Shown: positions 27,015-64,000, counted from the stretch's first letter. The stretch is DNA of 64,000 bases from Candidatus Woesearchaeota archaeon CG10_big_fil_rev_8_21_14_0_10_37_12 (GCA_002762795.1 PCYA01000017.1:801-64800), one strand, 5' to 3'. The notes: generated from the letters alone by a model not told the origin. Translations and numbers: made by a program.

Positions 27015-29030
27015 ATGCACAAGCGGGCACAGCTTACGATATTTATCATCATAGGCATAATTCTTCTTATCAGCATAGCAACAGTTGTCTACTTCACGCA
27101 GAAAAAAGCAACACAACCGCTGGAACACATAAGCCCTGTTCCAGAAGACGTTAAACCAGTTTATGATTACGTAACGACTTGTTTAAATCAAATAAGCAAA
27201 GATGGAATTAACTTGCTTGGAGCACAAGGCGGTCACATAAACATCCCGTCAATAATTGAACGGACACCAACAGCATACATTGCAAATGATCCAGCAGAAA
27301 TATCAAAACTCCCGCACTGGTATTATGAAGGAGAAGACAGAACACCAACGCTGGAATTCATGCAAACAGAGTTATCGAGATATGTTCGTGATAACTTGCC
27401 GGAATGTATTAACAACTTTGCAGCATTTCAACCAAGATATTCTATAAGACCAATCACTAACAGCGTTCCTGTTATAACAATTGCAGACGAAACAGTGCTT
27501 GTGCAACTCAATTGGATCCTTCAAGTTGACACTCCAGAACGAACAACACAAATTGAAACATTCATCACAAACCATCCAGTAAAACTCAAACAAGCATGGC
27601 AGCTTGCAAAAGATGTCATGGAAACAGAAAACAAAGAAGACTGGCTAGAAAACTTAACAATAGATTTCATGAGTGCGAACACAAACATACCAATAAGTGG
27701 AATGGAATTCAGTTGTGGAAGAAAAAGATGGCTGCTCAGTCAAGTAAAAAAAGAATTGCAAGACATGCTTTATTACAATGTTCCATACATAAGACTTGCG
27801 AACACAAATTTGCCCGAACCAATAGAATCAGAAAGAACATATGAAAACTTGAAAAAAGAAAAACAAAAAATTCACAATGATTTGTTGAAAGGAAATCAAC
27901 CAGACTGGCCAGAAGACACGCCAACAGATGCATATGAAATTAACAGAATGACATGGAATACGGGCACGAGAAAAACAGATCTTAAAGCAGCATTTCAATA
28001 CCAGCCGCAATGGACAATGCAATTAAACGCGCAACCAAACTCAGGAAATCAATTAGTAAGCGGTAAATTTCAAGGAGCACGAAAATACCTCAGATTCTTC
28101 TGCATAAATCAGTGGCATTTTACATACGATGTGATTTACCCAATAAAACTTGCAATCAAAGATGAAACTGCATTTTATGGAGATGGCTATTTGTTCCAAA
28201 TGAGCTTCCCTGTTATTATCCAAGATAATGCGCCAAGCAGAGCATACTATGGCCACAGACGATTTGATGATATAATAACAGACGGAGAATTCTGCACTAC
28301 ATTCAGCAACCAACGAGCAGACATCAGAGTCAGAGGTTTGGAAGAAGGCGCAATTTTTGCAGAAGAACTTGAAGAAGTAAACATAAGCTATTCATGCTTT
28401 AATCAATATTGCACATTAGGACAAACACGAGCAGACTCTGCAGGAATCATTCGCTTGCAAACATATCTTCCGCAAGGTTGCGGCAATCCAGTAATTCATG
28501 CAGAAAAAGAAGGTTATATTCCAGCGCAAATACATGCAACAGAAGAAAACGTTGAACTCACACTAACACAACTCAAAAAAATGAATTACACAATCATGGT
28601 TCACCCATACAATCCTGTAACAAACACATGGCTGGACAGTCAGATAACAACTATATCACCGACTAGAGATCCAACAAGAAAAGCAAGTATTGCAGTTATT
28701 GTAAACACAGCAGATTATGAGCAATACTATGAATATCCAAGCCCGCAAAACAATACTCAAGCAGATTTTGTATACGGAGATGCTAGATATGATCTTGATA
28801 TAATTTTGCTTAAAGGCGAAAACCCAATAGGCGGCTATCACGCAGAAAACATCAGCATAACATACGAAGAGGTTGCAGGAATGAATAATGCAATATTCCA
28901 TGTCATAGAATGGCAAGGTGCACTCGACAGAAACTTTGATCCGGTAAACATGTTTGAGTTCATCTACGAAACAGGAATGCACAGAGGCAAACAATACGCA
29001 GAAGTACTCAAACCAACATTCACACCATGA
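27015..29030 (+). CDS. large N-terminally anchored extracellular protein
   Basis: 671 aa, one N-terminal TM helix, many N-glycosylation sequons and paired Cys; stop overlaps the next start (ATGA). Confidence 0.6.
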   Translation: MHKRAQLTIFIIIGIILLISIATVVYFTQKKATQPLEHISPVPEDVKPVYDYVTTCLNQISKDGINLLGAQGGHINIPSIIERTPTAYIANDPAEISKLPHWYYEGEDRTPTLEFMQTELSRYVRDNLPECINNFAAFQPRYSIRPITNSVPVITIADETVLVQLNWILQVDTPERTTQIETFITNHPVKLKQAWQLAKDVMETENKEDWLENLTIDFMSANTNIPISGMEFSCGRKRWLLSQVKKELQDMLYYNVPYIRLANTNLPEPIESERTYENLKKEKQKIHNDLLKGNQPDWPEDTPTDAYEINRMTWNTGTRKTDLKAAFQYQPQWTMQLNAQPNSGNQLVSGKFQGARKYLRFFCINQWHFTYDVIYPIKLAIKDETAFYGDGYLFQMSFPVIIQDNAPSRAYYGHRRFDDIITDGEFCTTFSNQRADIRVRGLEEGAIFAEELEEVNISYSCFNQYCTLGQTRADSAGIIRLQTYLPQGCGNPVIHAEKEGYIPAQIHATEENVELTLTQLKKMNYTIMVHPYNPVTNTWLDSQITTISPTRDPTRKASIAVIVNTADYEQYYEYPSPQNNTQADFVYGDARYDLDIILLKGENPIGGYHAENISITYEEVAGMNNAIFHVIEWQGALDRNFDPVNMFEFIYETGMHRGKQYAEVLKPTFTP

Positions 29031-32000
29031 AACAAACAAAATTATTGCTATTCATTTTTATTTTGCTAGCAACGCTTGTAAACGCGCAAGAAATAAACAT
29101 AACAAACGTGAATGTTAATCACACAAACCAAACAAGTGTTATCACATGGCAAACACAGCCAGCAGCAACAAGCCTTCTTCAATACGGCATTAATAATCTT
29201 GCACAAAACGCATCAGACAACAACGTAACAGTGCAACATAGAATAGAAATACCAACAACGCCAGGAGAAACATACCAGTACATCATTACAAGCTGTGCAA
29301 ACCAAAACTGCACAAGCATGCAACCAGCAACATTCACTGCAGGAAACTTCTTTGTCACAGCAGACATACCAACACATGTACGAACAGCAAATATTGATAT
29401 TACAGGAAGAACACAATCAGGAGCAACAATAAGATTAATACTTAACGGAAGAGACTTGCGAACATTAACCACGCAAACAAATACATTCTTGTTCCGAGAT
29501 ATTCAGCTCGACTCATCTAATAATACAATCATTATCCGCGCAACATCAGCAACAGGAGAAACAACACAAAAAAACTATCCTGTACGACTTGATAACTCTC
29601 CAGCAAGAGTATCAATAAACACAACTGCATTCACAACAGAAAAACCAGCACCATTGCGAATAGTAACTTCAGAGCCAGTACAATTGAACATCACAATACA
29701 ACAACTGGATGATGGAAATGAAACAAAAGAAGTGCAACATAATATCACTCTCGCAGGAACAATACAAATTCCAGTAGAATTATACGATGGAAGAAACAGG
29801 ATCAGCATTATTGCAACAGATTATGCAGGATTCACAACACACACAGAAACAGAAATTTATTATGATTTTGGACCGCCACAATTCTTAGAAACAAACCTTA
29901 ACCAATTAACGCCAAGCTACAGCAGATTAATACGCGTAAAAGGAACACTCAGCGAACCAGCAAGCGTGACAGTATTTCTCAACAATGAACCAGAAGAAAC
30001 AGTACAAACAGACAGCAACAATAAGTTCAACATACCAATAAACCTCAAACAATTCGCACAACTTGACAGAAGCCAAGCACCAAACAGAACAACATTGGAA
30101 ACAGGACTAGCATGGCGAAACAACATAAGATTAGAAGCAATAGATGCAGCAGGAAGAATAACAGCAATACAAGGAGATGTTGTTTACGCAAGCTGTTCAC
30201 AAGATGGACTCATAGATGTTGTTGTAACAGAGCCGCTGCCAGACATACTGAACACAAGATTATTAGTGGAAGGATTGCAGCAAGTCGGATTGTCGTTTAA
30301 CTACAGTTACAGAGGAGATCAGGAAGCAATCATCAGACCAGCAGACATAAGAATGCATAAACTCACACCAGGACAGGCATTCCAAAATGAATATGACAAC
30401 GCGCTCGCTACAGTTGCAAAACCAGGAGTAAAAGCAGCAAGCCAAACAGACGGCATAGGATATATCCAAGTAAACTTCAACTCCATAGAAGATCCATGGG
30501 CATTACCAGAAACAGGAAACGCGCCGCAAGCAACAGAACCTCCTTCAAATAATCCAACACTGTTTGACAAAGAAGATAGACTATCAGATCATAGAAAAGG
30601 AGACTGCTTGCTTCCGGGCTTTGGATGCATGCGAATTCTACTACAAATAGAAATACCATACCAAGAAAGCAGCGCAAGATATTACACAGGATCACAAAGA
30701 ACAACAACACAAACAGGGCAACAACCATTAGCACAAGATCTTGTTGACCTAAATGAACGCGTGCACAGAACATGCTTACCAATAGAAGTAGCAATAGACA
30801 GAAGAATACCTCCAGAAAAACTCGGAAGCAGTTTCCTGAACCACACATCAAGAGTTCTTGGCGAAATTGTAGAGAACATAGACAAAGTACTCAAACCAGT
30901 GGAAAATGTTGGACGATTCTTGTTCTACTCCTGTCTTGCAAGCACAGGATTAATGTACTTGCCAAGCCTAAACGAAAGATGGACGTGCAAATACAGCAAC
31001 GCTGTAAACTTATTTAACAGAGACCTAGACGAATCAGCAACATTCAATGAGGGAGTTGCTGCAATAGGAAAATGTGAAGATTTCTACACAGGAGAAGCAC
31101 TTGAAAACTGCAAATCGTGCAGCGAAGCAAAAACAACATTCAACAATTACAAATACTATTACCAGCAAATCTGCGACAGAGTAATGTGCGGAGCAGCACC
31201 AAGCTTACAAACTTACTTGCGAGTAAAAGGACGAACAACACTCGAAAAAATAGAAGGATCAGGATATGAAGCAGGAAGCGACTGTGCAATGTGGATGAAA
31301 GAAAAAGGCAAAATCGGCACAGGAAAAAGAGGAGCAGTTATTTTTTCGTATCAGGAAATAGAAGGAATATACAAAGACTGGTTGGAACACCAAAGTGATG
31401 ATGCAGATGACACAGGATTTTCAGGGGAAGTGAACTGTGCAGGGTTGCACCCAGCTGACGCAAGCTGTTGCGGATATGAATACATGCAGGAATGGAGCAG
31501 CGCTTGCGGAGTAAGCATAGGTGGTGGAGGTCTTGACTTATTCGATGAAATTAAAGAAAGCACATGCTTGAGTGCGCAAAACGCAAACAAAAATGAAATA
31601 CCGGGAGCAGGAGACACAACGATACAATGCAGCAGATTAACAAATGCTCTCAGTGGATTCTGTGATGCAAATGGAGGACCGCCACTAGAACCAATACGAG
31701 TTATGCACTTTGAAGGCGGAGACTCAGGAGTAACAGGCAAAGTACGCCAATTAGGATTAGCAACTAACAAGGAAAAATTCATGTACGTCCTAATAAAAGA
31801 AAATACAGGAGGGCAAACACAAGAAAAGCACTCAATAATGCTTGGATTTGTAGCTGAGAAAGTAAAATACGCACAAACACCGCAATCAGCAACATTTGCA
31901 GAAGAAGATATATTCAGCATTAATACGCAAACAGAAGCAAGAGTTATGCCTGGAGGGTATGAGCTACAACAACAATTCTTCAGAGAAGAACAAACAGCAG

Positions 32001-35000
32001 CTTATTATCAAGGACAGCTTGATGATAACTTTTACACACAATTCGGCAACTATCTTTGTAACCAAGCAGGATATTCTGGACTGCCTTGCCAAGATGGAGA
32101 CTTTACACGAGATGATGCCAAAGACGTTTACGCAAGAGTCATGCAATACATTGGAGATCCAGAACAAGAATACATTGTCAACCCAAGCTCTGGAGTAATA
32201 AATGCAGCACGATGCTTGTGCTTCCCAACACTCATTAGCTTCCTAAAAACTTGGAGGAATATACTGCAAGCAGTGCAAAACTGCGTTAACAGCATAATAT
32301 TAACAGGAGACGGAGATGCAGGAATCTGCCAAGAAGGAGTAACAATACCAATGTGCGATTTGTTATACGATGCAATTGCGTGTTTCACACAACGATTCGG
32401 AGCAGGAGGAGGACGAATAGGACTAGGAGGAGGAGATCCAATAGGAGCTCTCACCAGCGCAGGGGCACAAGTATCACGAACAGTAGAAAGCAGATACGGT
32501 ACGACAAACATGTATCAGGCAACATTCGGAGACAGAAAACTTGTGCATAGCATTTGTTTGTTTGCATTCACAGGAACATGGAACCTTGATCCTTCTGCAT
32601 TATTTGACCAAGCACTCGAAGACGTTCCAACAGAAAGTTATACATTGTTGTATCCTTGTCAGAGAAGGTACGTAAGCTATGATCCTACAACAACACCGGG
32701 AGGTTTAGTAACATGGGTGTACAATTTCGGTGCAGGAATAGCAGCAGGAGCAAACTTAGACGTAGACTTTAAACTCAAATGCAGTGCAGACAGAAGTTGT
32801 CTTCCATCAGAAGGTTTTGAAGGCGGCAAGTGTGATTGTGAAGAATCAGGACAAGAAAAATACTTGCCAATCAGACCACAAGGAACACCAACAAGAGTAG
32901 CAAAAGGAGAAATTTTCAATCAACCAGTGTACTTCACGTTAAAGGGTAATCCAAGAGATGGTTCAACAAGATATGATACGTTAATTATGACTCACAGATG
33001 GAGAGATCAAGGGAAAATAGCAGAAAAACAAACAGAATGCAAAATAGGCCAGGCAGGAGGACCGTTAAGCGTGCCTCCGCATTGTAAATTTGACGCGGCA
33101 ACATTAAGCTTTAGGTGCATGCTTGGAGAAGACGAAGGAGCAATCAGTTTATTGGGCTCAACAGTAGATGCACAGCACAACATACCAAACCCGGCATTTG
33201 CATTAGGAGAAGAACTCAACATTACGCTCGATGTAAGGCAAGCATACCCAAGACAAGACGCAATGTTCAACAAATATTTGGAGTACGCAGTCATGAATTC
33301 AGCAGGGCAAACAGTTGCAACAAATAAAGACGAAGCACTGCATCCCTTGACAACAAACGGCGATTACAAAATAAGAACAACAAACAGAGGAATATTCAGA
33401 ACACAATTAACTGTTACAGAAGACTGGTTCGGAACGCAGCAACAAACAGGCAGAAATTACCAGACAAGCACATGGAACAAAAATGAGCCTAGTGTGTTGT
33501 CGCCAAATGATGAAGGATTAATCGCAGATGTTTTGTTAACAGATGCTACAGGAAATACAAAAACAGAACAATCAGCGTTTGTTATCGAATTTTCCAATGA
33601 AAATGACCAAACAACATGGAAACTATTTGATGGAGGATCAAGAAGAAAATCAGCAGCAGGAATACAAAAAGGAAACCAATTAACAGGAGGAGTGTATAAC
33701 CCAACAACCACAATCATCTTCTATCAGGGAACAACAGCACAATCACAAATTGTCAGAGATCCAAATGCACCAGCAGGAGTACGAGTTGTACAAAGTGCAA
33801 ACGCAAATATCAGAATAACATTCAACAATATGCCTGTGCTTGCGCCAGGAGAACGAAAACAAATCTTAGTAGAATGGCAAAAACAACCAGAACTCGGAGC
33901 ATGCACTGACGAAACAAAAAGACAACAACCACAAAGATTCACCATAACATTCTCAGCATTTGATGCTGACGAAAACGGAAACCCAAGCAACCAAGTAAGC
34001 GTAGATCCAAACACAGGAACACCAGCACAATTGCAAGTACCATTTTTTGCAGTATGTTCAGAACCTTCAGCAATTGCACATTTGGAAACAGCAAACAATG
34101 AAACAATGATCAAACAATTCATGAGAGACATCCACGACGAATTTGGAAAAGCAAAAATAGAACAACAAGAATATCTTACAAGAATTGATGCATTTTTAGC
34201 ATCATCATACCCATTAGATACTCAGCAAGGAAAAGGAGATGTAGTATCAAGATTAGAGGCATTATTAACATATGAATCATTACATTACAACAAAATACAA
34301 GGATTTGTTAATAGACTAACAAGCTTGCCTACAGAGAACAGAATAGCAGGAGTTGATGAATTTGAAACACTTCTGAACAGATATAATGTTGAATTAGGAG
34401 TTGCAATTAGAGTAATCAGAGGAATGAAAGATGACATCAGACAAAGCAGTTTAAGACAAGAAATAGGACCAGCATTACTAGAGATTAAAACAAAACTTAC
34501 AGAATTAATGCAGACTAAAGACCAAGCAATACAGGCAACACAAGAAATAATCTTATTCAGACCAACAACTACAACACAACAATTAAGCCAAAGAGACCCA
34601 GCAACAACACCTTTGTTAGCAAATGATAGGAAAATATTGGAAGAAATAAAAAGATTGATTGAACGTCATCAACAAATAACTCCCATTTCCGCAAAAAATA
34701 GTCAAATAATAGAAATAAATAGGCTTTTCAACTATACTTTTACAGGTGTCACTGTTGAGTATGTTTATAACTTTATTAAAGCAATTAATATAACACAAAC
34801 CACACATTCTCAAACATATAGTGGGCACATAGGCAGACTTTCTTCAGAAGAACGAACAACCAGCATAGTTCAACTTGAAATAGAACTCATGCAATTCTTA
34901 ACACATACAAGATCAGTGCTGCCAAACCTTCAATTAACTGCGTATAAACAACAATTACAACAAATAAATTCAAGTTTCACACAAATCACACAAGCAGAAG

Positions 35001-35830
35001 ACGCAGTGCTAGCATACATTACTCAAAGATTAACAGCGCCAGAAGCGCAAGTAACAGCACAACCAACAATAGACGCGTCAACAAAAGAAGGACAATTGCA
35101 AGCACTCAAAACAGCAATAGAAACAGCAAGACGTGATCGAGAACCTTATTTGCTTACTTTCCAAGATTATGTAACTAATCCAGCAACAATGCCAAATGAT
35201 CATGTACAATTTAGAAATAGTTACGCGAGAGCGCAACAAGTAGAAATACAAAACATGCAAGCATTAGAAACAATACAAATAAATCAATTACCAGACATAA
35301 TTAAACAAGACGTAGAATTGCTTAAGTTCAATATGGGAACAATTACAACAGGAAGTATTGGCAGGTTTATACAGAACATACAAAGTGCTGATTTGCAACA
35401 ACTTAAGAGTCAAGTTCCTGAAATGCACCAGAAATATCAGCTAATAACTGGCCAAGAAGATAGCATTCTCAGACAAATAGACCAAGAACTCAGTTCTTCT
35501 GGATCGGGTGGAGCAGCAGGACCACCACAAGTTCAAACACCTCCGGCACAACCACAACAAACAACACTAGAAGATCAACAAAAACTTGGTGCACTCAAAA
35601 TCATCATTGAAGCAAACCAACAAATAAGAACTAATCACAAACAAAGAATAACAACATATCTCCCGGCACTTGCACCTGGAAATAAAGAAACAGTCAGAAA
35701 CCTAATACGAGCAATACAAGAAACAGAAAGCAGATACGCGAGAAATGTTGAATTAGCTCATATTGGGTTGTCCAGTCAAGAGTTAAGAGCAATACCACAA
35801 CTTGCAGCATTAAAATTCACAACAGACTAA
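29027..35830 (+). CDS. giant secreted surface protein (2267 aa): sequon-rich N-terminus, Cys-rich middle, Gln-rich coiled-coil C-terminal third
   Basis: Signal peptide MKQTKLLLFIFILLATLVNAQE, >60 NxS/T sequons, dense Cys clusters between aa 600-1300, Q-rich heptad-like region aa 1550-2260. Confidence 0.7.
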   Translation: MKQTKLLLFIFILLATLVNAQEINITNVNVNHTNQTSVITWQTQPAATSLLQYGINNLAQNASDNNVTVQHRIEIPTTPGETYQYIITSCANQNCTSMQPATFTAGNFFVTADIPTHVRTANIDITGRTQSGATIRLILNGRDLRTLTTQTNTFLFRDIQLDSSNNTIIIRATSATGETTQKNYPVRLDNSPARVSINTTAFTTEKPAPLRIVTSEPVQLNITIQQLDDGNETKEVQHNITLAGTIQIPVELYDGRNRISIIATDYAGFTTHTETEIYYDFGPPQFLETNLNQLTPSYSRLIRVKGTLSEPASVTVFLNNEPEETVQTDSNNKFNIPINLKQFAQLDRSQAPNRTTLETGLAWRNNIRLEAIDAAGRITAIQGDVVYASCSQDGLIDVVVTEPLPDILNTRLLVEGLQQVGLSFNYSYRGDQEAIIRPADIRMHKLTPGQAFQNEYDNALATVAKPGVKAASQTDGIGYIQVNFNSIEDPWALPETGNAPQATEPPSNNPTLFDKEDRLSDHRKGDCLLPGFGCMRILLQIEIPYQESSARYYTGSQRTTTQTGQQPLAQDLVDLNERVHRTCLPIEVAIDRRIPPEKLGSSFLNHTSRVLGEIVENIDKVLKPVENVGRFLFYSCLASTGLMYLPSLNERWTCKYSNAVNLFNRDLDESATFNEGVAAIGKCEDFYTGEALENCKSCSEAKTTFNNYKYYYQQICDRVMCGAAPSLQTYLRVKGRTTLEKIEGSGYEAGSDCAMWMKEKGKIGTGKRGAVIFSYQEIEGIYKDWLEHQSDDADDTGFSGEVNCAGLHPADASCCGYEYMQEWSSACGVSIGGGGLDLFDEIKESTCLSAQNANKNEIPGAGDTTIQCSRLTNALSGFCDANGGPPLEPIRVMHFEGGDSGVTGKVRQLGLATNKEKFMYVLIKENTGGQTQEKHSIMLGFVAEKVKYAQTPQSATFAEEDIFSINTQTEARVMPGGYELQQQFFREEQTAAYYQGQLDDNFYTQFGNYLCNQAGYSGLPCQDGDFTRDDAKDVYARVMQYIGDPEQEYIVNPSSGVINAARCLCFPTLISFLKTWRNILQAVQNCVNSIILTGDGDAGICQEGVTIPMCDLLYDAIACFTQRFGAGGGRIGLGGGDPIGALTSAGAQVSRTVESRYGTTNMYQATFGDRKLVHSICLFAFTGTWNLDPSALFDQALEDVPTESYTLLYPCQRRYVSYDPTTTPGGLVTWVYNFGAGIAAGANLDVDFKLKCSADRSCLPSEGFEGGKCDCEESGQEKYLPIRPQGTPTRVAKGEIFNQPVYFTLKGNPRDGSTRYDTLIMTHRWRDQGKIAEKQTECKIGQAGGPLSVPPHCKFDAATLSFRCMLGEDEGAISLLGSTVDAQHNIPNPAFALGEELNITLDVRQAYPRQDAMFNKYLEYAVMNSAGQTVATNKDEALHPLTTNGDYKIRTTNRGIFRTQLTVTEDWFGTQQQTGRNYQTSTWNKNEPSVLSPNDEGLIADVLLTDATGNTKTEQSAFVIEFSNENDQTTWKLFDGGSRRKSAAGIQKGNQLTGGVYNPTTTIIFYQGTTAQSQIVRDPNAPAGVRVVQSANANIRITFNNMPVLAPGERKQILVEWQKQPELGACTDETKRQQPQRFTITFSAFDADENGNPSNQVSVDPNTGTPAQLQVPFFAVCSEPSAIAHLETANNETMIKQFMRDIHDEFGKAKIEQQEYLTRIDAFLASSYPLDTQQGKGDVVSRLEALLTYESLHYNKIQGFVNRLTSLPTENRIAGVDEFETLLNRYNVELGVAIRVIRGMKDDIRQSSLRQEIGPALLEIKTKLTELMQTKDQAIQATQEIILFRPTTTTQQLSQRDPATTPLLANDRKILEEIKRLIERHQQITPISAKNSQIIEINRLFNYTFTGVTVEYVYNFIKAINITQTTHSQTYSGHIGRLSSEERTTSIVQLEIELMQFLTHTRSVLPNLQLTAYKQQLQQINSSFTQITQAEDAVLAYITQRLTAPEAQVTAQPTIDASTKEGQLQALKTAIETARRDREPYLLTFQDYVTNPATMPNDHVQFRNSYARAQQVEIQNMQALETIQINQLPDIIKQDVELLKFNMGTITTGSIGRFIQNIQSADLQQLKSQVPEMHQKYQLITGQEDSILRQIDQELSSSGSGGAAGPPQVQTPPAQPQQTTLEDQQKLGALKIIIEANQQIRTNHKQRITTYLPALAPGNKETVRNLIRAIQETESRYARNVELAHIGLSSQELRAIPQLAALKFTTD

Positions 35831-36610: not shown

Positions 36611-37168
36611 TTGGCACATATGGTTCAAAAAAGAAACAATGTTGAGTTGGAAATTATAGATCTATTGTTTAAAAAAGAGAATCATGTCAGAGGAATATCT
36701 AAAAAACTAAATGAATCTCATTCTACAATATCGAGAAAATTAAACTATCTTAAAGATGAAAACGCGATTGATTATGTGCGGGAAGGAAAAAATAAGGTGT
36801 TTTTTCTGAAAAAAAACATCGTTGCACAAAGTTACATTCTAACCTCAGAAATACACAAACTAATAAAATTATTGAGAATATGCCCAGAATTAAGCGTTAT
36901 TTTTGAAGAAATGCTAAATAAAACAGATGAAAAATTAATCATTCTTTTCGGATCCTACGCAAAAGGGCTTGCTAAAAAAGACAGCGATATAGATGTTTAT
37001 ATTGAGACAAAAAACAAAACCGTTAAAAAAATTGTTGAGGATATAAATTCAAAAATCAGTGTTAAAATTGGTACATTCGATATTGACTCTCCGCTCGTTA
37101 AGGAAATAATAAAAGATCACATAATTATCAGAGGAGTTGAAAAATTTTATGAAAAACAATTTTCTTGA
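36611..37168 (+). CDS. winged-HTH fused to a minimal nucleotidyltransferase (MNT antitoxin-like)
   Basis: N-terminal wHTH (HVRGISKKLNESHSTISRKLNYL), then LFGSYAKGLAKKDSDIDVYIE = GSx9-10DxD Pol-beta NTase motif. Confidence 0.7.
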   Translation: MAHMVQKRNNVELEIIDLLFKKENHVRGISKKLNESHSTISRKLNYLKDENAIDYVREGKNKVFFLKKNIVAQSYILTSEIHKLIKLLRICPELSVIFEEMLNKTDEKLIILFGSYAKGLAKKDSDIDVYIETKNKTVKKIVEDINSKISVKIGTFDIDSPLVKEIIKDHIIIRGVEKFYEKQFS

Positions 37169-37628
37169 AAAACTAAAAAAAGAAGAAAAACTAGAACTGA
37201 TCGACCCTTCAGAGAACATCCATGATTCTTACTTGGAAAAATCCAATAACTGTATGAAAGCAGCAAAATTATTGTTGCAAAACAAATTATATGAGAACTC
37301 TATCGGGATGTCTTATTATGCGATGTATGACTTGCTTGTAGCATTATTATTCAGAGTAGGAATTAAATGCGAGAATCACTCAGCAGCAATTCTATTGCTC
37401 AAATCACTATTTGAAAATGATGAATTGTTTAAACTTATTTCGAATGCAAAAAAAGAAAGAATTGATAAACAATATTATATAACGACTGAAAAAGATACTG
37501 TGACTGAAGAAATAGCAAAAGAATTATTAACTCATGCGGAATACTTTGTTTTAAATCTGAAATCAATTATTGCCAGATTAAAAAACGAGGATGTTCCTAA
37601 AATCAGAGAAAAATTCAAAACATTATAA
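37137..37628 (+). CDS. HEPN-domain protein (toxin-like partner of the MNT)
   Basis: All-helical 163 aa; overlaps the MNT gene by 32 nt; HEPN-MNT gene order; Rx4-6H not clearly assignable. Confidence 0.55.
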   Translation: MKNFMKNNFLEKLKKEEKLELIDPSENIHDSYLEKSNNCMKAAKLLLQNKLYENSIGMSYYAMYDLLVALLFRVGIKCENHSAAILLLKSLFENDELFKLISNAKKERIDKQYYITTEKDTVTEEIAKELLTHAEYFVLNLKSIIARLKNEDVPKIREKFKTL

Positions 37629-37638
37629 CACTGGAAAA

Positions 37639-37690
37639 ATGATCCTTACAAAAACCTTACCAAACGCGTGGAATTTGTTTGTTAAACACA
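37639..37690 (+). repeat. direct repeat 2 (52 bp) matching 36528-36576
   Basis: atgatccttacaaaaaccttaccaaacgcgtggaatttgtttgttaaacaca. Confidence 0.6.
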
Positions 37691-38448
37691 AGCAATACCT
37701 TATATTATTTGTATTGTTAGACTTTGTCTTTTTGTTCTTTACAGCACAAGCCCATTTAACTTATTTTATTCCGACAGCAGATGCGGCAAACAGAGCAGGA
37801 GAAATTATCACGCAAGAACTGCAAACACTGCAAATGACAGATGCATACCAACTGGACGCTATTCTAATGCAAAATTCGCAGTTTAAACAAGCATATCATG
37901 ACTTATTGCAAGGCATAATTTACTTTTTTATCACCATGTTTATCATCTGGATAGTTATCAGGTCAGCAATCTGGCACATCAGCTACAAAATAATTCATAA
38001 AAAAACAAACTGGAAAACAAACGTGCTCAAATTTGCACTGTTTAGCCTTTTTTGGTTTGTTGTTGTTGCAATCGTGTTCGTTCTTTACAGTATATCAACA
38101 GGAAGCACAGCAACATTGTTACCAATAGTTGGAAATCCGTTAATTAGCATATTGATGATTGCTCTGTTTGTTCTAATTTATTATTTCAGTCAGATAAGTT
38201 TTGCTCTTGTGCCGGTACAACAAAGTTTTAATAAGACCTTTGCTTACGGAGTAAAATATGCCAAGAAATTTGTTCCAGTGGCACTTATAAATGCAATAAT
38301 TGTGTTCCTTGCACTCAGTCTGCCACTTAACTGGCTGCAAACATACCCAATAATATCACTTGCAATAATCATAATCATCAGCATACCAGCACTCGCATTT
38401 GCACGAGTGCATATAATCGGAGCAACAGAATGGGTAAAAAAATATTAA
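37639..38448 (+). CDS. polytopic membrane protein
   Basis: Start set at ATG 37639 (MILTKTLPNAWNLF), since this N-terminus is what is duplicated at 36528; ORF track extends to 37591; 6 TM helices. Confidence 0.5.
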   Translation: MILTKTLPNAWNLFVKHKQYLILFVLLDFVFLFFTAQAHLTYFIPTADAANRAGEIITQELQTLQMTDAYQLDAILMQNSQFKQAYHDLLQGIIYFFITMFIIWIVIRSAIWHISYKIIHKKTNWKTNVLKFALFSLFWFVVVAIVFVLYSISTGSTATLLPIVGNPLISILMIALFVLIYYFSQISFALVPVQQSFNKTFAYGVKYAKKFVPVALINAIIVFLALSLPLNWLQTYPIISLAIIIIISIPALAFARVHIIGATEWVKKY

Positions 38449-39104
38449 TAGCACTTGTTTGTCTGGTAATAATAGTTATTTTATTACTTCTTGCACTGCA
38501 ATATCCAGTTATACAACAAACAAAAACAGTGCAGACAACACCACAACAATATCCTGAACAACAGGAAATGGTTGAACAAGAACAACTATTAGAATTACCA
38601 ACTGAATTGGAGATACCAACGCCAAGAAGCCCTGCACTGGAAACAAGACCGGCAGCAACACCAAAAGCACCGGAGCCAGAACTATCACCGACAGGAGTTT
38701 CAATAGACAAAGTATTCCCACAAACAGTGCAGTTCTGGGTAAATACAATCAAAGTACCTGACACTACAGGTGCAACTGAGTACACGTACAATTACATTCC
38801 GGTACAAGCAAGAGAACTCAAAACATTTGCCGGAAGTTTCGGACCATATGCAGAAGACCCAATAGAACACATAATAATACTTCTTTGTGCAGAACTTACA
38901 AAAATAACAGCAGCACCATCATGTCAGCCAGTCAACATTGTATTCAGAGATGGTTATGTGAGCTTTGCAAAAGGCTACCAATATGACGAATATATTGGTG
39001 GGATGGCTGCAAAAGATTATACGGCTTACTATGAAATACACTTAAAAGAAACAGACACAATCATCAGAACAAGCAACAAAGCGTTTGTGAGAACAGTTAA
39101 TTAA
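38430..39104 (+). CDS. secreted protein with Pro/Glu/Gln-rich linker
   Basis: N-terminal TM/signal, PEQQEMVEQEQLLELPTELEIPTPRSP linker, ~120-aa C-terminal domain. Confidence 0.45.
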   Translation: MGKKILIALVCLVIIVILLLLALQYPVIQQTKTVQTTPQQYPEQQEMVEQEQLLELPTELEIPTPRSPALETRPAATPKAPEPELSPTGVSIDKVFPQTVQFWVNTIKVPDTTGATEYTYNYIPVQARELKTFAGSFGPYAEDPIEHIIILLCAELTKITAAPSCQPVNIVFRDGYVSFAKGYQYDEYIGGMAAKDYTAYYEIHLKETDTIIRTSNKAFVRTVN

Positions 39105-40893: not shown

Positions 40894-41283
40894 ATGCCAA
40901 GATGGGAAGATGATAGTTGGGAAGTGGAAGCAGATGAATATTTGGCAGGACGAAGAGGAGAAATAGCAGTGGGATGTCTGTCGTCCAGAAGACCAACACA
41001 AGTTTACTTAGATCCTCATCAATTAAAAATAAGCCAAGATGCATCTAGACAAGGATGGATTCTTCATCGTGATTATCAATGGGAGGGTGCGATTGCAGCA
41101 AATCACGTTGACGCTCCTCCTGAACCGGACTCAGACGAACTTCAAGGAAGAATAGAATGGGCTGAAACAAGCCATCTGTATGTTGTTGGTTATGATTTAA
41201 AAGATCGTCTGGCTGTAGCTCGTGATTTAAGATGTATGCAAAAGGCAAGAAGAGATTTTGAATCATATAAATCGCCCGATTAA
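40894..41283 (+). CDS. hypothetical protein
   Basis: 129 aa, Trp-rich, no motif. Confidence 0.4.
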   Translation: MPRWEDDSWEVEADEYLAGRRGEIAVGCLSSRRPTQVYLDPHQLKISQDASRQGWILHRDYQWEGAIAANHVDAPPEPDSDELQGRIEWAETSHLYVVGYDLKDRLAVARDLRCMQKARRDFESYKSPD

Positions 41284-41373
41284 AAATATGGCTTTTTTGT
41301 CACTAAGAATTATATCTTAAAAAGACTTCTCACTATATATTGTGACTAAATTGTCAAGGGTGTGAACTACTGA

Positions 41374-41622
41374 TTGGAGATGAAGGAGGAAAACATGGCA
41401 GAAAACAAAGATGAGCAGATTGGCTTTCATAAAGGATCATTAACAACGCTTGCAAAAGAAAGACAAGAACTTGCACGCATGCTTCAAATAGTTGAACAAT
41501 TAATGCAAGCACACATCAAAGCACTTAAAGATTTGGGCGTTGATTTAGAAGCACAAGCAAAGCAAGCAAAAGAACCAGTTAAAGAAAGTAAACCATTAGA
41601 AGAGGCAATCAGAAAAGCATGA
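41374..41622 (+). CDS. small coiled-coil protein
   Basis: 82 aa, heptad pattern; stop overlaps the next start. Confidence 0.35.
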   Translation: MEMKEENMAENKDEQIGFHKGSLTTLAKERQELARMLQIVEQLMQAHIKALKDLGVDLEAQAKQAKEPVKESKPLEEAIRKA

Positions 41623-42368
41623 ATTACGGAACAGGAGGGTACAGCCCAGTAAGCGGTTACGGAGCAGGATTTCAACACAGCTCTGGCAGTTATACGCTTC
41701 CTACAGCAACCTACAGCTCAGTTAGTAGCGGATACAACTCAGCAAACAATTATGAAAGCTCTTCGCTAAAACCATATGCTGCACAAGAACACGCACACTT
41801 TTCTTTCGCAGAGAGTTTTCTTGTAGAAAACAGGCCAACAACGCAATTTGTCTCGGAATTAGGAGAAGTACGGGAAATTGTAGAAGAAACATACTGCAAG
41901 ATAACAGGACAGGAATTTCCACACGATGACATCAAAATAGTTATTTGCAATTCAGAACAATTAAAATCAATTCATGAACAATCAGGAAGCAGATGGAGTC
42001 CTGGAATATTGGGATTCAGTTTCAACAAATACGCTAAAGGAGTGTCTGAAATTTACGTCAAAGAAGACCACCTGGACAGTTTACTGCTCACAATCGGACA
42101 TGAGATAGGACACGTATTAAGCCCAACGTTACTTAATGCACAAGATGAAGAAGCAAAAGCACACGCATTCAGCTTAGCATGGATGGAAACAATCAGAGAC
42201 AACAACATTGGGGGCTTGCAGCCAAACATATCATTAAATCCTGCACAAAACGGATTGCATGACGTTGCATTTGATTACGTAAAATATTTACTTCGCACAG
42301 GAAGCTCATCATTTGACATATTTCAAACCCTTGCACACGGATTAACCAGTATAATAGCACGAACCTGA
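41619..42368 (+). CDS. HExxH zinc-metallopeptidase-like protein (ImmA/IrrE-DUF955-like) with Gly/Ser/Tyr-rich N-terminus
   Basis: LLLTIGHEIGHVLSP HExxH motif in an all-helical context; low-complexity G/S/Y N-terminal 60 aa. Confidence 0.5.
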   Translation: MNYGTGGYSPVSGYGAGFQHSSGSYTLPTATYSSVSSGYNSANNYESSSLKPYAAQEHAHFSFAESFLVENRPTTQFVSELGEVREIVEETYCKITGQEFPHDDIKIVICNSEQLKSIHEQSGSRWSPGILGFSFNKYAKGVSEIYVKEDHLDSLLLTIGHEIGHVLSPTLLNAQDEEAKAHAFSLAWMETIRDNNIGGLQPNISLNPAQNGLHDVAFDYVKYLLRTGSSSFDIFQTLAHGLTSIIART

Positions 42369-42376
42369 GGTGGAAA

Positions 42377-44383
42377 ATGGCAGCAAAAAAACAAATAGAG
42401 AATTTTGAAAAATCATCAGAAAATAGTCAAAATTCTCTAAGCAGTGCTTTGAATAATAAAAAAAGTAACCAGCCAAAGCACTCAGCAAAGAAAACAGAAA
42501 CATACGAAAAACAGGAAAAACCAGAACAATCATATGGTCAAAAACAAACAACAAAAACAGAACAAAAAGAAGACTTTATTCCACTAAGTGTACCAAAAGA
42601 AGTTGTGGAGCAACTCAAACCAATCAAAGACAAACTTGTCAAGTTTCAAAAAACAATTACTGAAAAATTTGACAAATACATCATGGGTATTGCGTTATTA
42701 CCACCACCATTACCACCTCTGAAAAATTTACCTCCAGATATACTGGCACAAGAACAAAAAAGATACGATCAGGAAAAAGACAAATACCACACCTTAGTTC
42801 TCATAGATGATACAGAACCAACACGAATGAGCAAACTTGAGTTAAAAGATAAATTAACTGCAATCATGGATAAATCAGCAATAGAAATTGACCAAAAAAT
42901 ATACCCTCAGCCACTATTGCTCACAGAACTCTGGCAAAACTGTTATGATGGGAAATATGACTTGCTCAAACTTATAGGGATGAGTGCTCCTATTTATGAC
43001 ACTGGAATGCTTGGAGCAGTACGCATTGCAGAAATGCACAAAAATATGGTTCTCAAAAAATTTGAGAAGTACATTGTAACATACGTTCTTGCAGGATCAT
43101 TAGTACAAGGACGAGCAACAAAAGAATCAGACATAGATGTCTTTATTGTTATTGATGATACTGACGTTAAGAAAATGTCACGAACAGAACTTCGTGACAA
43201 ATTGCGAGCGATTATTCTAGGAATGGGTGCAGAAGCAGGTGAATTAACAGGCATCAGAAACAAAATCAACATTCAACCGTACATCCTAACAGACTTCTGG
43301 GATATGATACGAGAAAGTAATCCTGTTATATTTACTTTCCTGAGAGATGGAGTTCCTTTCCACGACAGAGGAATATTCATGCCATGGAAACAACTGCTCA
43401 AAATGGGCAAGATAAAACCATCAACAGAAGCAATAGACATCTTCATGAGCTCAGGAGAACAAACGCTAAACAAAGTCAAACTGCGATTGCGAGACATTGG
43501 AGTAGAGGATTTTTTCTGGGGAATTCACACACCAACACAAGCAGCATTGATGTTATATGGTGTTGCACCACCCGCACCTAAAGAAACGTGTGGAGTACTT
43601 CGAGACTTATTTGTCAAAAAAGAAAAACTGCTTGAAGAAGATTATGTAAAAATCCTTGAAAATGTTATTCAGGTCAGAAAAGACATAGAACACGGAACAA
43701 AAAAAGAAATCACAGGCAAAGAAATAGACCAATTGCTTGCAGACTCTGAAAAATACATGAAAAGACTCAAAAAATTATTTACACAAATCGAAAAAATTAA
43801 GGAAGAAGAAAGCATGTTGCACATATATGACACCATGCAAACAATGCTACGCGATGTACTGAAAGTAGAGGGTGTTGATAGGGCAGCAGAAGGGGAATTA
43901 GCGCATGTTTTCGAGGAAGAATTAATTAGTACTGGAAAAGTTCCTGCTAAGTATTTGAGAACTCTGCATGACTTGCTAAAAGCAAAAGCAGACAGTGACA
44001 AAGGAAAACTTGGCAAAACAGAAATTGATCAGGTGCGCAAACAAGCAAATGAGCTAATCAGATATCTGGTTGATTACACACAACGCAAAAGAGTACGCGC
44101 ATTTGAACGAAGCAAAATCAAGGTAAAACACGGCAATAAATACGGCGAAATAGTGTTGCTTGGTGATTCAGCGTTCATAATTACTGACATGGATGCAAAA
44201 GAACGCGTTGTAGAAGAAGCACCAGTGAAAGAAGACGGAAGTTTTGGAACAGCAAAAAAAATAAAACCAGAAGAGTTTGAAGAAGCAATGACAAAACTCT
44301 CACCAAGAAAAGTAACATTGACTTCGAATTTGTTTGAGAGCATAACAAAAATATTCGGTAAAGATTGCGAAGTGCTTTATTGA
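42377..44383 (+). CDS. large Lys/Glu-rich protein with tandem Pol-beta-type nucleotidyltransferase domains (first degenerate) and helical C-terminal region
   Basis: YHTLVLIDDTEPTRMSKLELKDKLTAI (degenerate copy) and YVLAGSLVQGRATKESDIDVFIVIDDTDVKKMSRTELRDKLRAI (intact GS..DxD); 300-aa helical C-terminus. Confidence 0.55.
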   Translation: MAAKKQIENFEKSSENSQNSLSSALNNKKSNQPKHSAKKTETYEKQEKPEQSYGQKQTTKTEQKEDFIPLSVPKEVVEQLKPIKDKLVKFQKTITEKFDKYIMGIALLPPPLPPLKNLPPDILAQEQKRYDQEKDKYHTLVLIDDTEPTRMSKLELKDKLTAIMDKSAIEIDQKIYPQPLLLTELWQNCYDGKYDLLKLIGMSAPIYDTGMLGAVRIAEMHKNMVLKKFEKYIVTYVLAGSLVQGRATKESDIDVFIVIDDTDVKKMSRTELRDKLRAIILGMGAEAGELTGIRNKINIQPYILTDFWDMIRESNPVIFTFLRDGVPFHDRGIFMPWKQLLKMGKIKPSTEAIDIFMSSGEQTLNKVKLRLRDIGVEDFFWGIHTPTQAALMLYGVAPPAPKETCGVLRDLFVKKEKLLEEDYVKILENVIQVRKDIEHGTKKEITGKEIDQLLADSEKYMKRLKKLFTQIEKIKEEESMLHIYDTMQTMLRDVLKVEGVDRAAEGELAHVFEEELISTGKVPAKYLRTLHDLLKAKADSDKGKLGKTEIDQVRKQANELIRYLVDYTQRKRVRAFERSKIKVKHGNKYGEIVLLGDSAFIITDMDAKERVVEEAPVKEDGSFGTAKKIKPEEFEEAMTKLSPRKVTLTSNLFESITKIFGKDCEVLY

Positions 44384-44535
44384 TTTTTTATCTCAAATGT
44401 TGGGTCTAATACAAAGAAAATTCTCAGAGTTTTCTGTGCGCGAAAAATGTATTTTTCGCTGTAGAAAAATGAACGATACCAATAAAATTCTTAGAATTTT
44501 ATGGCGCCAAAAAATGCTTTGAATTTTTTGAGCGA

Positions 44536-44580
44536 AATACCCTGACCTTCAGGTCGGGGAATGGTGCGTTTTTCTTTATT
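44536..44580. repeat. GC-hairpin plus T-tract element copy 1 (CCTGACCTTCAGGTCGGGGAATGGTGCGTTTTTCTTTAT)
   Basis: ~90% identical to 49991-50035; sits between convergent gene ends. Confidence 0.5.
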
Positions 44581-44662
44581 TTATACGTCAGAAATATACC
44601 ATCAGTCTATTTGACTGATGGACAACGTCCCTATTACTATAGTAATCTGGTATATTTCTGAG

Positions 44663-44763
44663 CATGCTCAAGAACCACTGGACTATATTTTCTTATAACT
44701 TTCTGAACAGTCATGCCACTGGTGTTTAGCGACGAAGGAGCGATCACCAGTGGTTCTTGACAT
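44663..44763 (+). repeat. MITE-like element copy B
   Basis: Inverted repeats ctcaagaaccactgg (44668-44681) and ccagtggttcttgac (44747-44761); internal sequence ~80% identical to copy C; preceded by nested hairpins 44589-44660. Confidence 0.6.
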
Positions 44764-44790
44764 ATTTGATAAGATTTGAGTAGAAGCAAC

Positions 44791-63736: not shown

Positions 63737-63757
63737 TTAATTCAAAGTTGCCTTTAC

Positions 63758-63852
63758 GGACCGTAGGGGCTTCGAACCCCCGACCACTCGGTATCTGTCT
63801 TGAGTATATCAAGCTAAGAGCCGAGTGCTCTACCAGACTGAGCTAACGGTCC
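63758..63852 (-). tRNA. tRNA-Lys(CUU) with a 22-nt intron at the canonical 37/38 position
   Basis: Reverse complement GGACCGT-TA-GCTC-AGTCTGGTA-GAGC-A-CTCGG-CUCUUA-[GCTTGATATACTCAAGACAGAT]-A-CCGAG-TGGTC-GGGGG-TTCGAAG-CCCCT-ACGGTCC gives a perfect 7-bp acceptor, D, anticodon and T stems, U33, anticodon CUU; no encoded CCA. Confidence 0.8.
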
Positions 63853-64000
63853 AATATAAAGAAAAACAAGCGTTTCTTTTAAATATCTTGCGCAGTTATT
63901 TCCTTAACTTTTTAATTTGCAATCTAAAAAATTTCTTTACTTCTTTCACAACAGAATCTGTACTTGCAAAGAAGTCAAACAAACTTCCTATGAAAAGTGT

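Follow-up and report, generated by a model that had tools for sequence, protein, structure and literature searches.

The 64,000-nucleotide stretch of DNA analyzed here (hereafter the window), taken from a Candidatus Woesearchaeota (DPANN archaea) metagenome-assembled genome (MAG) of the CG10_big_fil_rev series, carries on its plus strand three consecutive open reading frames (ORFs; called at 41374-41622, 41619-42368 and 42377-44383; locus tags COV18_05960 to COV18_05970) that encode a small helical protein, a zincin-like protein with an HExxH motif and a 668-residue protein combining nucleotidyltransferase (NTase) and HEPN domains. The explanation that we favor, and to which we assign a probability of roughly 0.55, is that the locus is a conserved chromosomal operon built around a domesticated, single-chain MNT–HEPN derivative of type VII toxin–antitoxin (TA) systems, which would serve as a housekeeping enzyme together with two accessory partners. 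The gene of the 668-residue protein is a lineage-wide, core-like chromosomal gene that resides in a housekeeping context and is not a mobile module; the operon is real and conserved within a large clade, and its three genes are separable. Since each of the three proteins has hundreds to thousands of conserved homologues, the ORFs are genes and not chance reading frames.

Anatomy of the 668-residue protein

The large protein consists of a dead NTase module, a live NTase module, a HEPN domain with an Rx4H motif, a helical region and an α/β domain, an architecture established by the hhalign duplication, the AlphaFold2 model, Foldseek matches, profile and Pfam matches to HEPN families and motif conservation. 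Its parts are as follows.

42377..42586, plus strand: Lys/Gln/Glu-rich disordered N-terminus, residues 1-70, with a predicted local distance difference test score (pLDDT) of 30-56
42656..43012, plus strand: degenerate MNT-type NTase module (copy 1), residues ~94-212, delimited by hhalign against copy 2
43049..43378, plus strand: intact MNT-type NTase module (copy 2), residues 225-334, from Pfam, Foldseek and invariant motifs
43340..43432, plus strand: NTase–HEPN junction LRDGVPFxDRGxFxPWKxLLKxGKIKPSxEA, residues 322-352, the most conserved stretch of the family
43412..43867, plus strand: HEPN domain of the UPF0332 type, residues ~346-497, from Foldseek, profile and motif
43868..44110, plus strand: second helical region, residues ~498-578, with modelled helices at 505-517, 525-541 and 547-578
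44111..44383, plus strand: C-terminal α/β domain, residues ~579-668, and the stop codon, modelled at pLDDT 86-93

The duplication emerges from a profile–profile comparison of the two halves of a 70-sequence alignment, whereby residues ~94-212 and 225-334 were matched over 104 columns with an hhalign probability of 98.6% (E=6e-16); Pfam finds one NTase motif only in the whole protein. Copy 2 keeps G240-S241, D252-I-D254 and D306, all of them invariant in the 70 sequences, and is matched by NTP_transf_2 (residues 227-279, E=1e-6, 29.5 bits against a cutoff of 21) and by Polbeta (E=6e-6), so that it displays both the motif and the hidden Markov model score of an MNT-type NTase, whereas copy 1 lacks the motif. 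In the latter a Pro-rich insert (PP) replaces the GS pair, and K136 and H138 replace D252 and D254; judged by its residues, copy 1 is catalytically dead yet conserved, and a shortened remnant of it can still be recognized in relatives at 30-35% identity. The structures retrieved by Foldseek for copy 2 are MNT antitoxins (8xeo, with a template-modelling (TM) score of 0.70, and 2rff) and aminoglycoside nucleotidyltransferase (ANT) enzymes.

Residues ~346-497 belong, on the evidence of the predicted model, to the HEPN superfamily, forming a helical bundle that carries a motif of the Rx4-6H type. This motif, R434-K-D-I-E-H439-G (Rx4H; nt 43676-43696), is strongly constrained, with K435, E438, H439 and G440 invariant and R434 conserved in at least 90% of the 70 sequences. 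Foldseek aligns the region with the AF0298 HEPN structure 2hsb (probability 1.0, TM 0.69), and a profile of residues 340-505 searched against the PDB again retrieves AF0298 (E=0.012), with RKDIEHG aligned on R-x4-Y-G; on this same part of the chain, Pfam returns sub-threshold matches to HEPN_MAE_28990 (E=0.005) and HEPN_Apea (E=0.034).

Even relatives at 29-35% identity, and also lineages devoid of the catalytic motifs, keep the junction that links copy 2 to the HEPN domain invariant. Two relatives from one distant lineage (P0404 and P0405) have lost GS, DxD and Rx4H together and have kept the junction in the form LRDG..YDRG.F.PWK..L. This joint loss, a single event, hints that the NTase and HEPN sites act as a unit, while the retention of the junction in proteins without catalytic motifs suggests a separate, non-catalytic conserved function. 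Among the longer relatives, of 1100-1340 residues (P0417, P0425, P0439-P0443 and P0465), ~700 residues of TPR repeats precede the NTase–HEPN core.

The AlphaFold2 model of the full-length protein, with a mean pLDDT of 78.6, comprises two α/β NTase modules and a four-helix region at residues 350-497; the C-terminal domain is built of five strands, two helices and a final strand and has no Pfam match. The second helical region, which likewise has no family match, is possibly a degenerate second HEPN-like bundle; that it is a clear second HEPN copy was considered and rejected, its hhalign comparison with the first HEPN region reaching only E=0.011 and a probability of 4%. At the other end of the chain, the N-terminus varies in length and sequence among homologues, with pLDDT below 50 for residues 17-70. 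The best whole-model Foldseek matches are ANT(9), ANT(4')/KNTase, AadA, MNT antitoxins, HEPN–MNT complexes and Hailong HalB.

The original prediction, made from the window's sequence alone, had already described the tandem NTase modules, with a first copy deprived of GS and an intact second copy, as well as the disordered Lys/Gln-rich N-terminus and the long helical region, and all of these hold; the helical region, which it proposed to check for a HEPN or KNTase_C fold, turns out to contain the HEPN domain. Its further statement that the architecture is not one that can be recognized stands only in part, given that an MNT–HEPN fusion cluster was listed in 2019 (PMC6393860).

Distribution and genomic context of the large protein

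Scanning a single genome for each GTDB species confirmed at least 592 relatives of the 668-residue protein, all of them from Woese/Nanoarchaeota-type MAGs; the relatives that bear names are Woesearchaeota, Nanoarchaeota/Nanoarchaeia, the distant Ca. Tiddalikarchaeum and one MAG labelled as Aenigmarchaeota. The best 120 database matches are 57-77% identical over ~90% of the length, are again restricted to Woese/Nanoarchaeota and are in many cases annotated by JGI as 'nucleotidyltransferase/UPF0332'. When clustered at 50% identity, the relatives amount to 689 clusters at E<=1e-3 and to 180 at E<=1e-30.

The surroundings of the gene are those of a housekeeping gene: L21e, an Rpb4-like gene, DUF655 and HisRS are its neighbors in the window, and DNA ligase or the S13-S4-S11-RpoD-L18e-L13 cluster are found beside it in other species. 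In 38 of 80 species loci (among L002-L081, e.g. L019 at 8285-8830) the next gene downstream encodes a CBS-pair protein that ends in a Zn-ribbon, and two to four genes of ~180 codons often come after it in tandem; the window contains no homologue of either the CBS/Zn-ribbon gene or the ~180-residue genes. A viral or mobile origin was rejected: not one relative was found on the 2.9 million viral contigs of IMG/VR, the PHROG search returned no match, and the weak PADLOC matches (PDC-S09 and PDC-M05A, E>=1.5e-5) are confined to ~45 residues of a generic NTase motif.

The same window harbors, at 36611-37168 on the plus strand, a gene that combines an ArsR-like helix-turn-helix (HTH) with an MNT domain (NTP_transf_2, E=6e-10; PADLOC PDC-M05A, E=1e-8 over 128 residues) and, overlapping it at 37137-37628 on the same strand, a gene for a HEPN protein (PF05168, E=3e-12). 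This pair is a classical stand-alone two-gene MNT/HEPN module, in contrast to the fused 668-residue protein.

The operon and the two partner proteins

The gene order small, HExxH, NTase occurs in 21 of the 80 NTase-anchored species loci, with intergenic gaps mostly between -7 and +15 nt; one contig-end locus shows the HExxH gene followed by the NTase gene, the small gene directly precedes the NTase gene in another (L027), and the NTase gene stands alone in about 49 testable species loci. Loci with the complete trio fall on one side of the midpoint-rooted NTase tree, with the exception of L047, which lies opposite. Starting from divergent homologues of the small or the HExxH protein, the trio was encountered on four more contigs; in L088 it is interrupted by two extra small genes. 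Order and tight coupling persist where the HExxH proteins are only 37-40% and the NTases 58% identical, and the genes that flank the trio are not conserved. Looked at from the HExxH gene in metagenomic loci, 49 of 70 testable cases include the small gene and 42 of 67 the NTase gene, the trio being the commonest context.

That the HExxH gene always lies inside the trio, as in 26 of 26 contexts, was ruled out by the metagenome scan, which yielded ~20 loci with other contexts: the gene precedes a ~100-residue gene and a DUF483 protein, precedes tandem 'HELGH' paralogues, or is followed by a membrane protein and then the small gene, in many cases close to a gene for a Fis-type HTH protein. In four metagenomic loci (L113, L117, L131 and L132) the order is HExxH, c17, small; in L108 and L145 the small gene also lies downstream of the HExxH gene, and in L082-L084 it occurs without its partners in unrelated contexts. 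A ~215-residue protein with a Fis-type HTH_8 motif (E=1e-7) and a second HTH-like stretch recognized by eye is encoded near the HExxH and small genes in several metagenomic loci (L108, L113, L117, L132, L136, L141, L144, L153 and L162) and may regulate them. In L154 the HExxH homologue is followed by seven tandem ~200-residue paralogues with 'HELGH ... EMYADNKAF', which belong to a different protein family; a smaller version of this array is seen in L140 and L150.

Apart from the parts of the large protein, the following features were located in and around the operon.

41334..41341, plus strand: TATA-like box TATATATT, ~55 nt 5' of the small-gene ATG, read from the sequence; a possible archaeal promoter of the operon
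41385..41389, plus strand: GGAGG Shine-Dalgarno sequence, 5 nt upstream of ATG 41395
41395..41622, plus strand: gene of the small helical protein, 75 residues, from ORF and JGI calls
41619..41798, plus strand: disordered Ser/Gly/Tyr-rich N-terminal tail of the HExxH protein, residues 1-60, pLDDT below 50
41811..42368, plus strand: zincin-like catalytic domain of the HExxH protein, residues ~65-249, from AlphaFold2 and invariant columns
42370..42376, plus strand: GAGGTGG-type Shine-Dalgarno sequence of the NTase gene, within the 8-nt spacer region
44384..44389, plus strand: T6 run directly 3' of the NTase stop codon, a putative terminator-like signal of archaeal type

Co-transcription of the three genes, which the original prediction had deduced from their overlapping or abutting stops and starts, is supported by these signals and by a gene order that is kept in many genomes. 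The stop codon of the small gene and the start codon of the HExxH gene share the sequence ATGA (41619-41622), and the HExxH stop (42366-42368) is separated from the NTase ATG (42377) by an 8-nt spacer. The search for the same neighborhood in other archaeal MAGs, which had been suggested along with that prediction, gave the 21 species loci described above. The small ORF proposed at 41374-41622 does exist; its start, however, is most likely the ATG at 41395 and not the TTG at 41374, because homologues begin with 'MA..EQIGFHKG', a GGAGG lies 5 nt upstream and the JGI product has 75 residues. A 129-residue ORF between the L21e gene and the operon (40894-41283, plus strand), Arg/Trp/Asp-rich, of 41.8% GC and without a family match, was discarded as a fourth operon gene, given that it has no homologue at any related locus and that upstream genes vary; an orphan gene and a spurious call are both conceivable.

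The 75-residue protein has a core EQIGFHKGxLTTLAKERQEL..VEQLMQxHxKxLKDLGVDLEAEAK; a Lys-rich linker and then an acidic KPLEE tail complete the chain. With 1907 homologous clusters the protein is three times as widespread as the HExxH protein (640 clusters), and 26 of its columns are invariant among 25 sequences, many of them polar (E7, GFHKG, K21-E-R23, VEQLMQ and H40). A coiled-coil is plausible on account of the heptad-like hydrophobic spacing from L16 to L51, as read by eye. No significant family or PDB match was obtained, DUF6447 and HTH_11 remaining sub-threshold, the latter in 15 of 25 homologues. The idea of an HTH repressor was therefore abandoned: beyond these sub-threshold matches there is only a local resemblance to the BirA recognition helix over 21 residues, and no full HTH.

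The HExxH protein can be assigned with confidence to a zincin-like fold on the basis of its model, and to no classified family. Its HEIGH motif (residues 161-165, nt 42099-42113) is invariant in 39 homologues, and further invariant motifs are LTxGHExGH, DEEAKAxAF (residues 176-184) on the next helix and PAxNGxH (residues 208-214). The modelled domain, a helix, three strands, the HExxH helix and a Glu-bearing helix, has pLDDT values mostly of 93-98, with 75-86 near residues 201-220 and at the C-terminus. There was no match in Pfam, NCBIfam or PDB sequence and profile searches; the best Foldseek matches, YbeY TM1509 in the PDB (E=0.23) and polyvalent-protein zincins, a phage 'IrrE' (E=0.11) and SprT-like proteins in BFVD, are not significant. 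The HExxH motif and the G/S/Y-rich N-terminus of the original prediction are confirmed, whereas membership in ImmA/IrrE is not supported by any of these searches: none of the 39 members passes the Pfam threshold for Peptidase_M78, a single one reaching E=0.06, and the upstream partner is not an Xre-type HTH protein. What likeness there is to ImmA/IrrE (COG2856, Peptidase_M78) lies in an HExxH-bearing helix followed by an acidic 'EEAxA.AF' helix, which we take to resemble the M78 motif 'ExEANxFA'; the spacing from HExxH to the Glu is, in contrast, shorter (12-13 residues).

The tail that precedes this domain has pLDDT below 50 over residues 5-56 in the AlphaFold2 model. Pooled over the family, the tails contain 18% S, 12.6% G and 11.3% Y, as compared with 1.7% Y in the folded domain, and this composition is kept across the family while sequence and length (48-170 residues) vary. 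Such a Tyr/Ser/Gly-rich tail is, to our knowledge, not a feature of ImmA/IrrE proteins. It occurs family-wide, with or without an adjacent NTase gene; a specific tie between the Tyr-rich tail and the neighboring NTase was accordingly dismissed, loci without the NTase having equally Tyr-rich tails.

Elsewhere in the window, the 407-bp intergenic region downstream of the operon (44384-44790) contains at 44588-44661 (plus strand) a 74-nt structure, either a compound hairpin or a three-way junction, whose outer arms pair perfectly over 14 nt (minimum free energy -29 kcal/mol, z-score -5.0 against shuffles, no Rfam family at threshold). A small RNA, a terminator cluster and a repeat element are all conceivable here. 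An ORF of 2267 codons at 29027-35830 (plus strand), with a sub-threshold Cadherin-like match (E=4e-4), probably encodes a giant surface protein and is followed by membrane-protein-like ORFs at 37591-39104. A 98-nt tRNA gene at 63756-63853 (minus strand; Rfam tRNA, 53.9 bits), for which ARAGORN returns 'tRNA-???' with a 4-base anticodon call, probably contains an intron.

Competing explanations and proposed role

The large-protein family has been flagged in the literature and never characterized. A DPANN-specific cluster, cls.004259 (NEQ050), was described as 'MNT fused to HEPN', typically in a house-keeping context and of unusual conservation (Makarova, Wolf & Koonin 2019, PMC6393860); like it, our family is DPANN-restricted, combines NTase and HEPN in one chain, is unusually conserved for TA-derived domains and has housekeeping neighbors. 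The main text of that paper, which deals with the cluster in one table line and one paragraph, mentions neither the dead/live duplication nor the extra C-terminal domains nor the operon.

The two-gene type VII system HepT/MntA offers the same active-site signatures (an MNT domain with GS and DxD, a HEPN domain with Rx4H), and its structures are among the Foldseek matches (8xeo/8xeh, 7ae9, 7bxo and 6m6u). HepT and MntA are, however, encoded by two small adjacent genes, whereas the 668-residue protein is a single ORF with two NTase modules that scores only 22 bits against the NCBIfam MntA_antitoxin cutoff of 60; HepT has an acceptor Tyr (Rx4HxY; PMC13000451), whereas no Tyr follows the motif here; and HepT/MntA is patchy and mobile, on plasmids, prophages and islands, whereas our family is vertically inherited in at least 592 places within one lineage. 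The only experimentally studied fused form is FhepTA of Shewanella prophages, which self-oligoAMPylates and whose MNT domain keeps HEPN from dimerising (Yao et al. 2026, PMC13000451). It shares with our protein the single polypeptide with N-terminal MNT and C-terminal HEPN domains; it is, in contrast, a mobile bacterial protein of 276 residues with one MNT domain and a Tyr beside the RNase motif, the archaeal protein being 2.4 times longer, chromosomal and lineage-wide, with a pseudo-NTase and two extra regions.

The mechanism that we propose for the domesticated MNT–HEPN protein follows from the analogy with these two systems, in both of which the NTase oligo-AMPylates a Tyr beside the HEPN motif, that is, MntA modifies HepT, and the MNT domain hinders HEPN dimerisation (PMC7641770; PMC13000451). 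The dead NTase copy would stand in, within the same chain, for the dimer partner that the live copy would have in MNT or KNTase enzymes, since the tandem modules could mimic an ANT/KNTase dimer; the live module would use ATP for nucleotidylylation of a hydroxyl that belongs either to the HEPN part or to a partner protein, and this modification would gate the cleavage or binding of a housekeeping RNA by way of the HEPN domain. The outcome would be an ATP-responsive switch of RNA processing or turnover that a lineage with reduced genomes cannot lose. The small protein and the zincin, carried on the same mRNA in one clade, would most likely be a binding partner and a processing or turnover protease of the same pathway. 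A more ambitious version, which we regard as rather doubtful, joins all three DPANN-specific proteins in one housekeeping pathway peculiar to these symbiotic archaea, with the activity or localization of the ATP-sensing NTase–HEPN switch set by the invariant 75-residue protein as a coiled-coil adaptor and by the zincin with its FUS-like tail; within it, the Tyr-rich tail could be a poly-tyrosine acceptor of AMPylation or a condensate-forming element.

Several observations weigh against the reading of a domesticated TA derivative and its operon. No Tyr is found in the Rx4H region of 16 aligned sequences, where G440-T441 follow H439, and each chain of the 668-residue protein has a single Rx4H, such that an RNase would need dimerisation or a degenerate second bundle. 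The predicted TM score (pTM) of the AlphaFold model is only 0.45, and the inter-domain, pseudo-dimer arrangement therefore stays a proposal. The likeness to cls.004259 is drawn from the published description of its domains and context. Lastly, each gene of the trio is also found apart from the others, and the operon lies mostly within one clade of the NTase tree, so that vertical inheritance alone may account for some of its conservation.

The first two of these points speak for a serious mechanistic alternative, which we nonetheless deem unlikely, namely that the protein is a KNTase/ANT-like transferase whose HEPN-derived domain is not a nuclease and binds the nucleotide or an acceptor, be it a small molecule, a protein hydroxyl or an RNA 3' end. 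ANT(4'), ANT(9), AadA and LinB share the order of an NTase followed by a helical HEPN-derived domain, and ANT(9), ANT(4')/KNTase and AadA are the best two-domain Foldseek matches (E 1.5e-3 to 1e-2, probability ~1.0, over ~275-300 columns); the top-conserved segment of our family is, moreover, the NTase–HEPN junction and not the HEPN motif. At a root-mean-square deviation of ~17 Å to the ANT structures, however, only the domain types match, and the NCBIfam ANT_9 match is weak (21.2 bits against a cutoff of 340). The Rx4H and its following Gly are near-invariant in the 70 sequences and in most of the distant relatives, whereas KNTase-type domains have reportedly lost the Rx4H, a point attributed to Anantharaman and co-workers in 2013; the joint loss of Rx4H and NTase GS/DxD in P0404 and P0405 also suggests coupled sites.

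The clade restriction of the operon would in turn be expected if the three genes were neighbors by descent, brought together by an ancestral rearrangement in one clade and kept in co-transcription by compact-genome pressure, without any shared function. DPANN genomes are compact and contain many unrelated overlapping genes, and all three genes function elsewhere without the others. Such an account is improbable in view of a gene order and coupling that persist at the divergence reported above, of flanks that are not conserved whereas the trio is, of partial associations that recur (L027; the HExxH–c17–small order in four loci; L108 and L145) and of L047, which has the trio in the opposite part of the NTase tree.

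More doubtful is a three-component TA or anti-phage module, a direction to which the original prediction had pointed in calling the pairing reminiscent of derepression or anti-phage modules. In it the zincin would sense a signal and cleave the small protein, a repressor or antitoxin, and thereby free the NTase–HEPN effector, after the model of COG2856–Xre–toxin operons or of PDC-M05. MNT and HEPN domains are indeed typical TA and defence parts (PMC2701414; PMC12988326), the succession of a small gene, a protease-like gene and a TA-type effector resembles the COG2856–Xre–toxin operons (PMC2701414), and the weak PADLOC matches and the sub-threshold HTH_11 matches point the same way. Yet the NTase is inherited vertically throughout its lineage at 57-77% identity, beside housekeeping genes and with no relative on viral contigs or in PHROG; its PADLOC matches cover the generic motif only, as opposed to the 128 residues over which the stand-alone MNT gene of the window matches PDC-M05A; the small protein lacks a full HTH, is more widespread than the protease and also occurs alone; and the HExxH protein is not a detectable member of COG2856/M78. 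Hardly credible, finally, is the scenario that the original prediction had named as its own refutation: a housekeeping NTase already known, for instance the archaeal CCA-adding enzyme, with the peptidase gene adjacent by coincidence. The Pol-beta-type NTase motif and the housekeeping context would suit it, whereas no CCA-adding enzyme was retrieved in PDB sequence or profile searches or among the 50 Foldseek matches listed, and Pfam, NCBIfam and fold comparison point to the MNT, ANT and HEPN classes instead. Class I CCA enzymes have a domain order unlike two MNT modules and a HEPN domain; we have discarded this and any other known housekeeping NTase for want of sequence or fold support.

DPANN genomes are tiny, and few genes are both DPANN-specific and widely conserved; the MNT–HEPN fusion is among those few. 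Our analysis makes its anatomy concrete and indicates the behavior of a core gene rather than of a selfish module, while the conserved operon ties it to two other lineage-specific proteins. Set against the literature searched, the new elements are the dead/live NTase duplication, the Rx4H kept without an acceptor Tyr, the extra domains and the operon with a lineage-wide 75-residue protein and an unclassified zincin with a Tyr/Ser/Gly-rich tail. The problem thereby becomes testable, with defined catalytic residues, candidate partners and the bacterial FhepTA toxin as a contrast. If the domestication reading is true, the family would be a clear case of a TA module turned into essential cellular machinery. 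The locus does not represent a new defence system; its value lies in giving a well-defined way into DPANN-specific biology.

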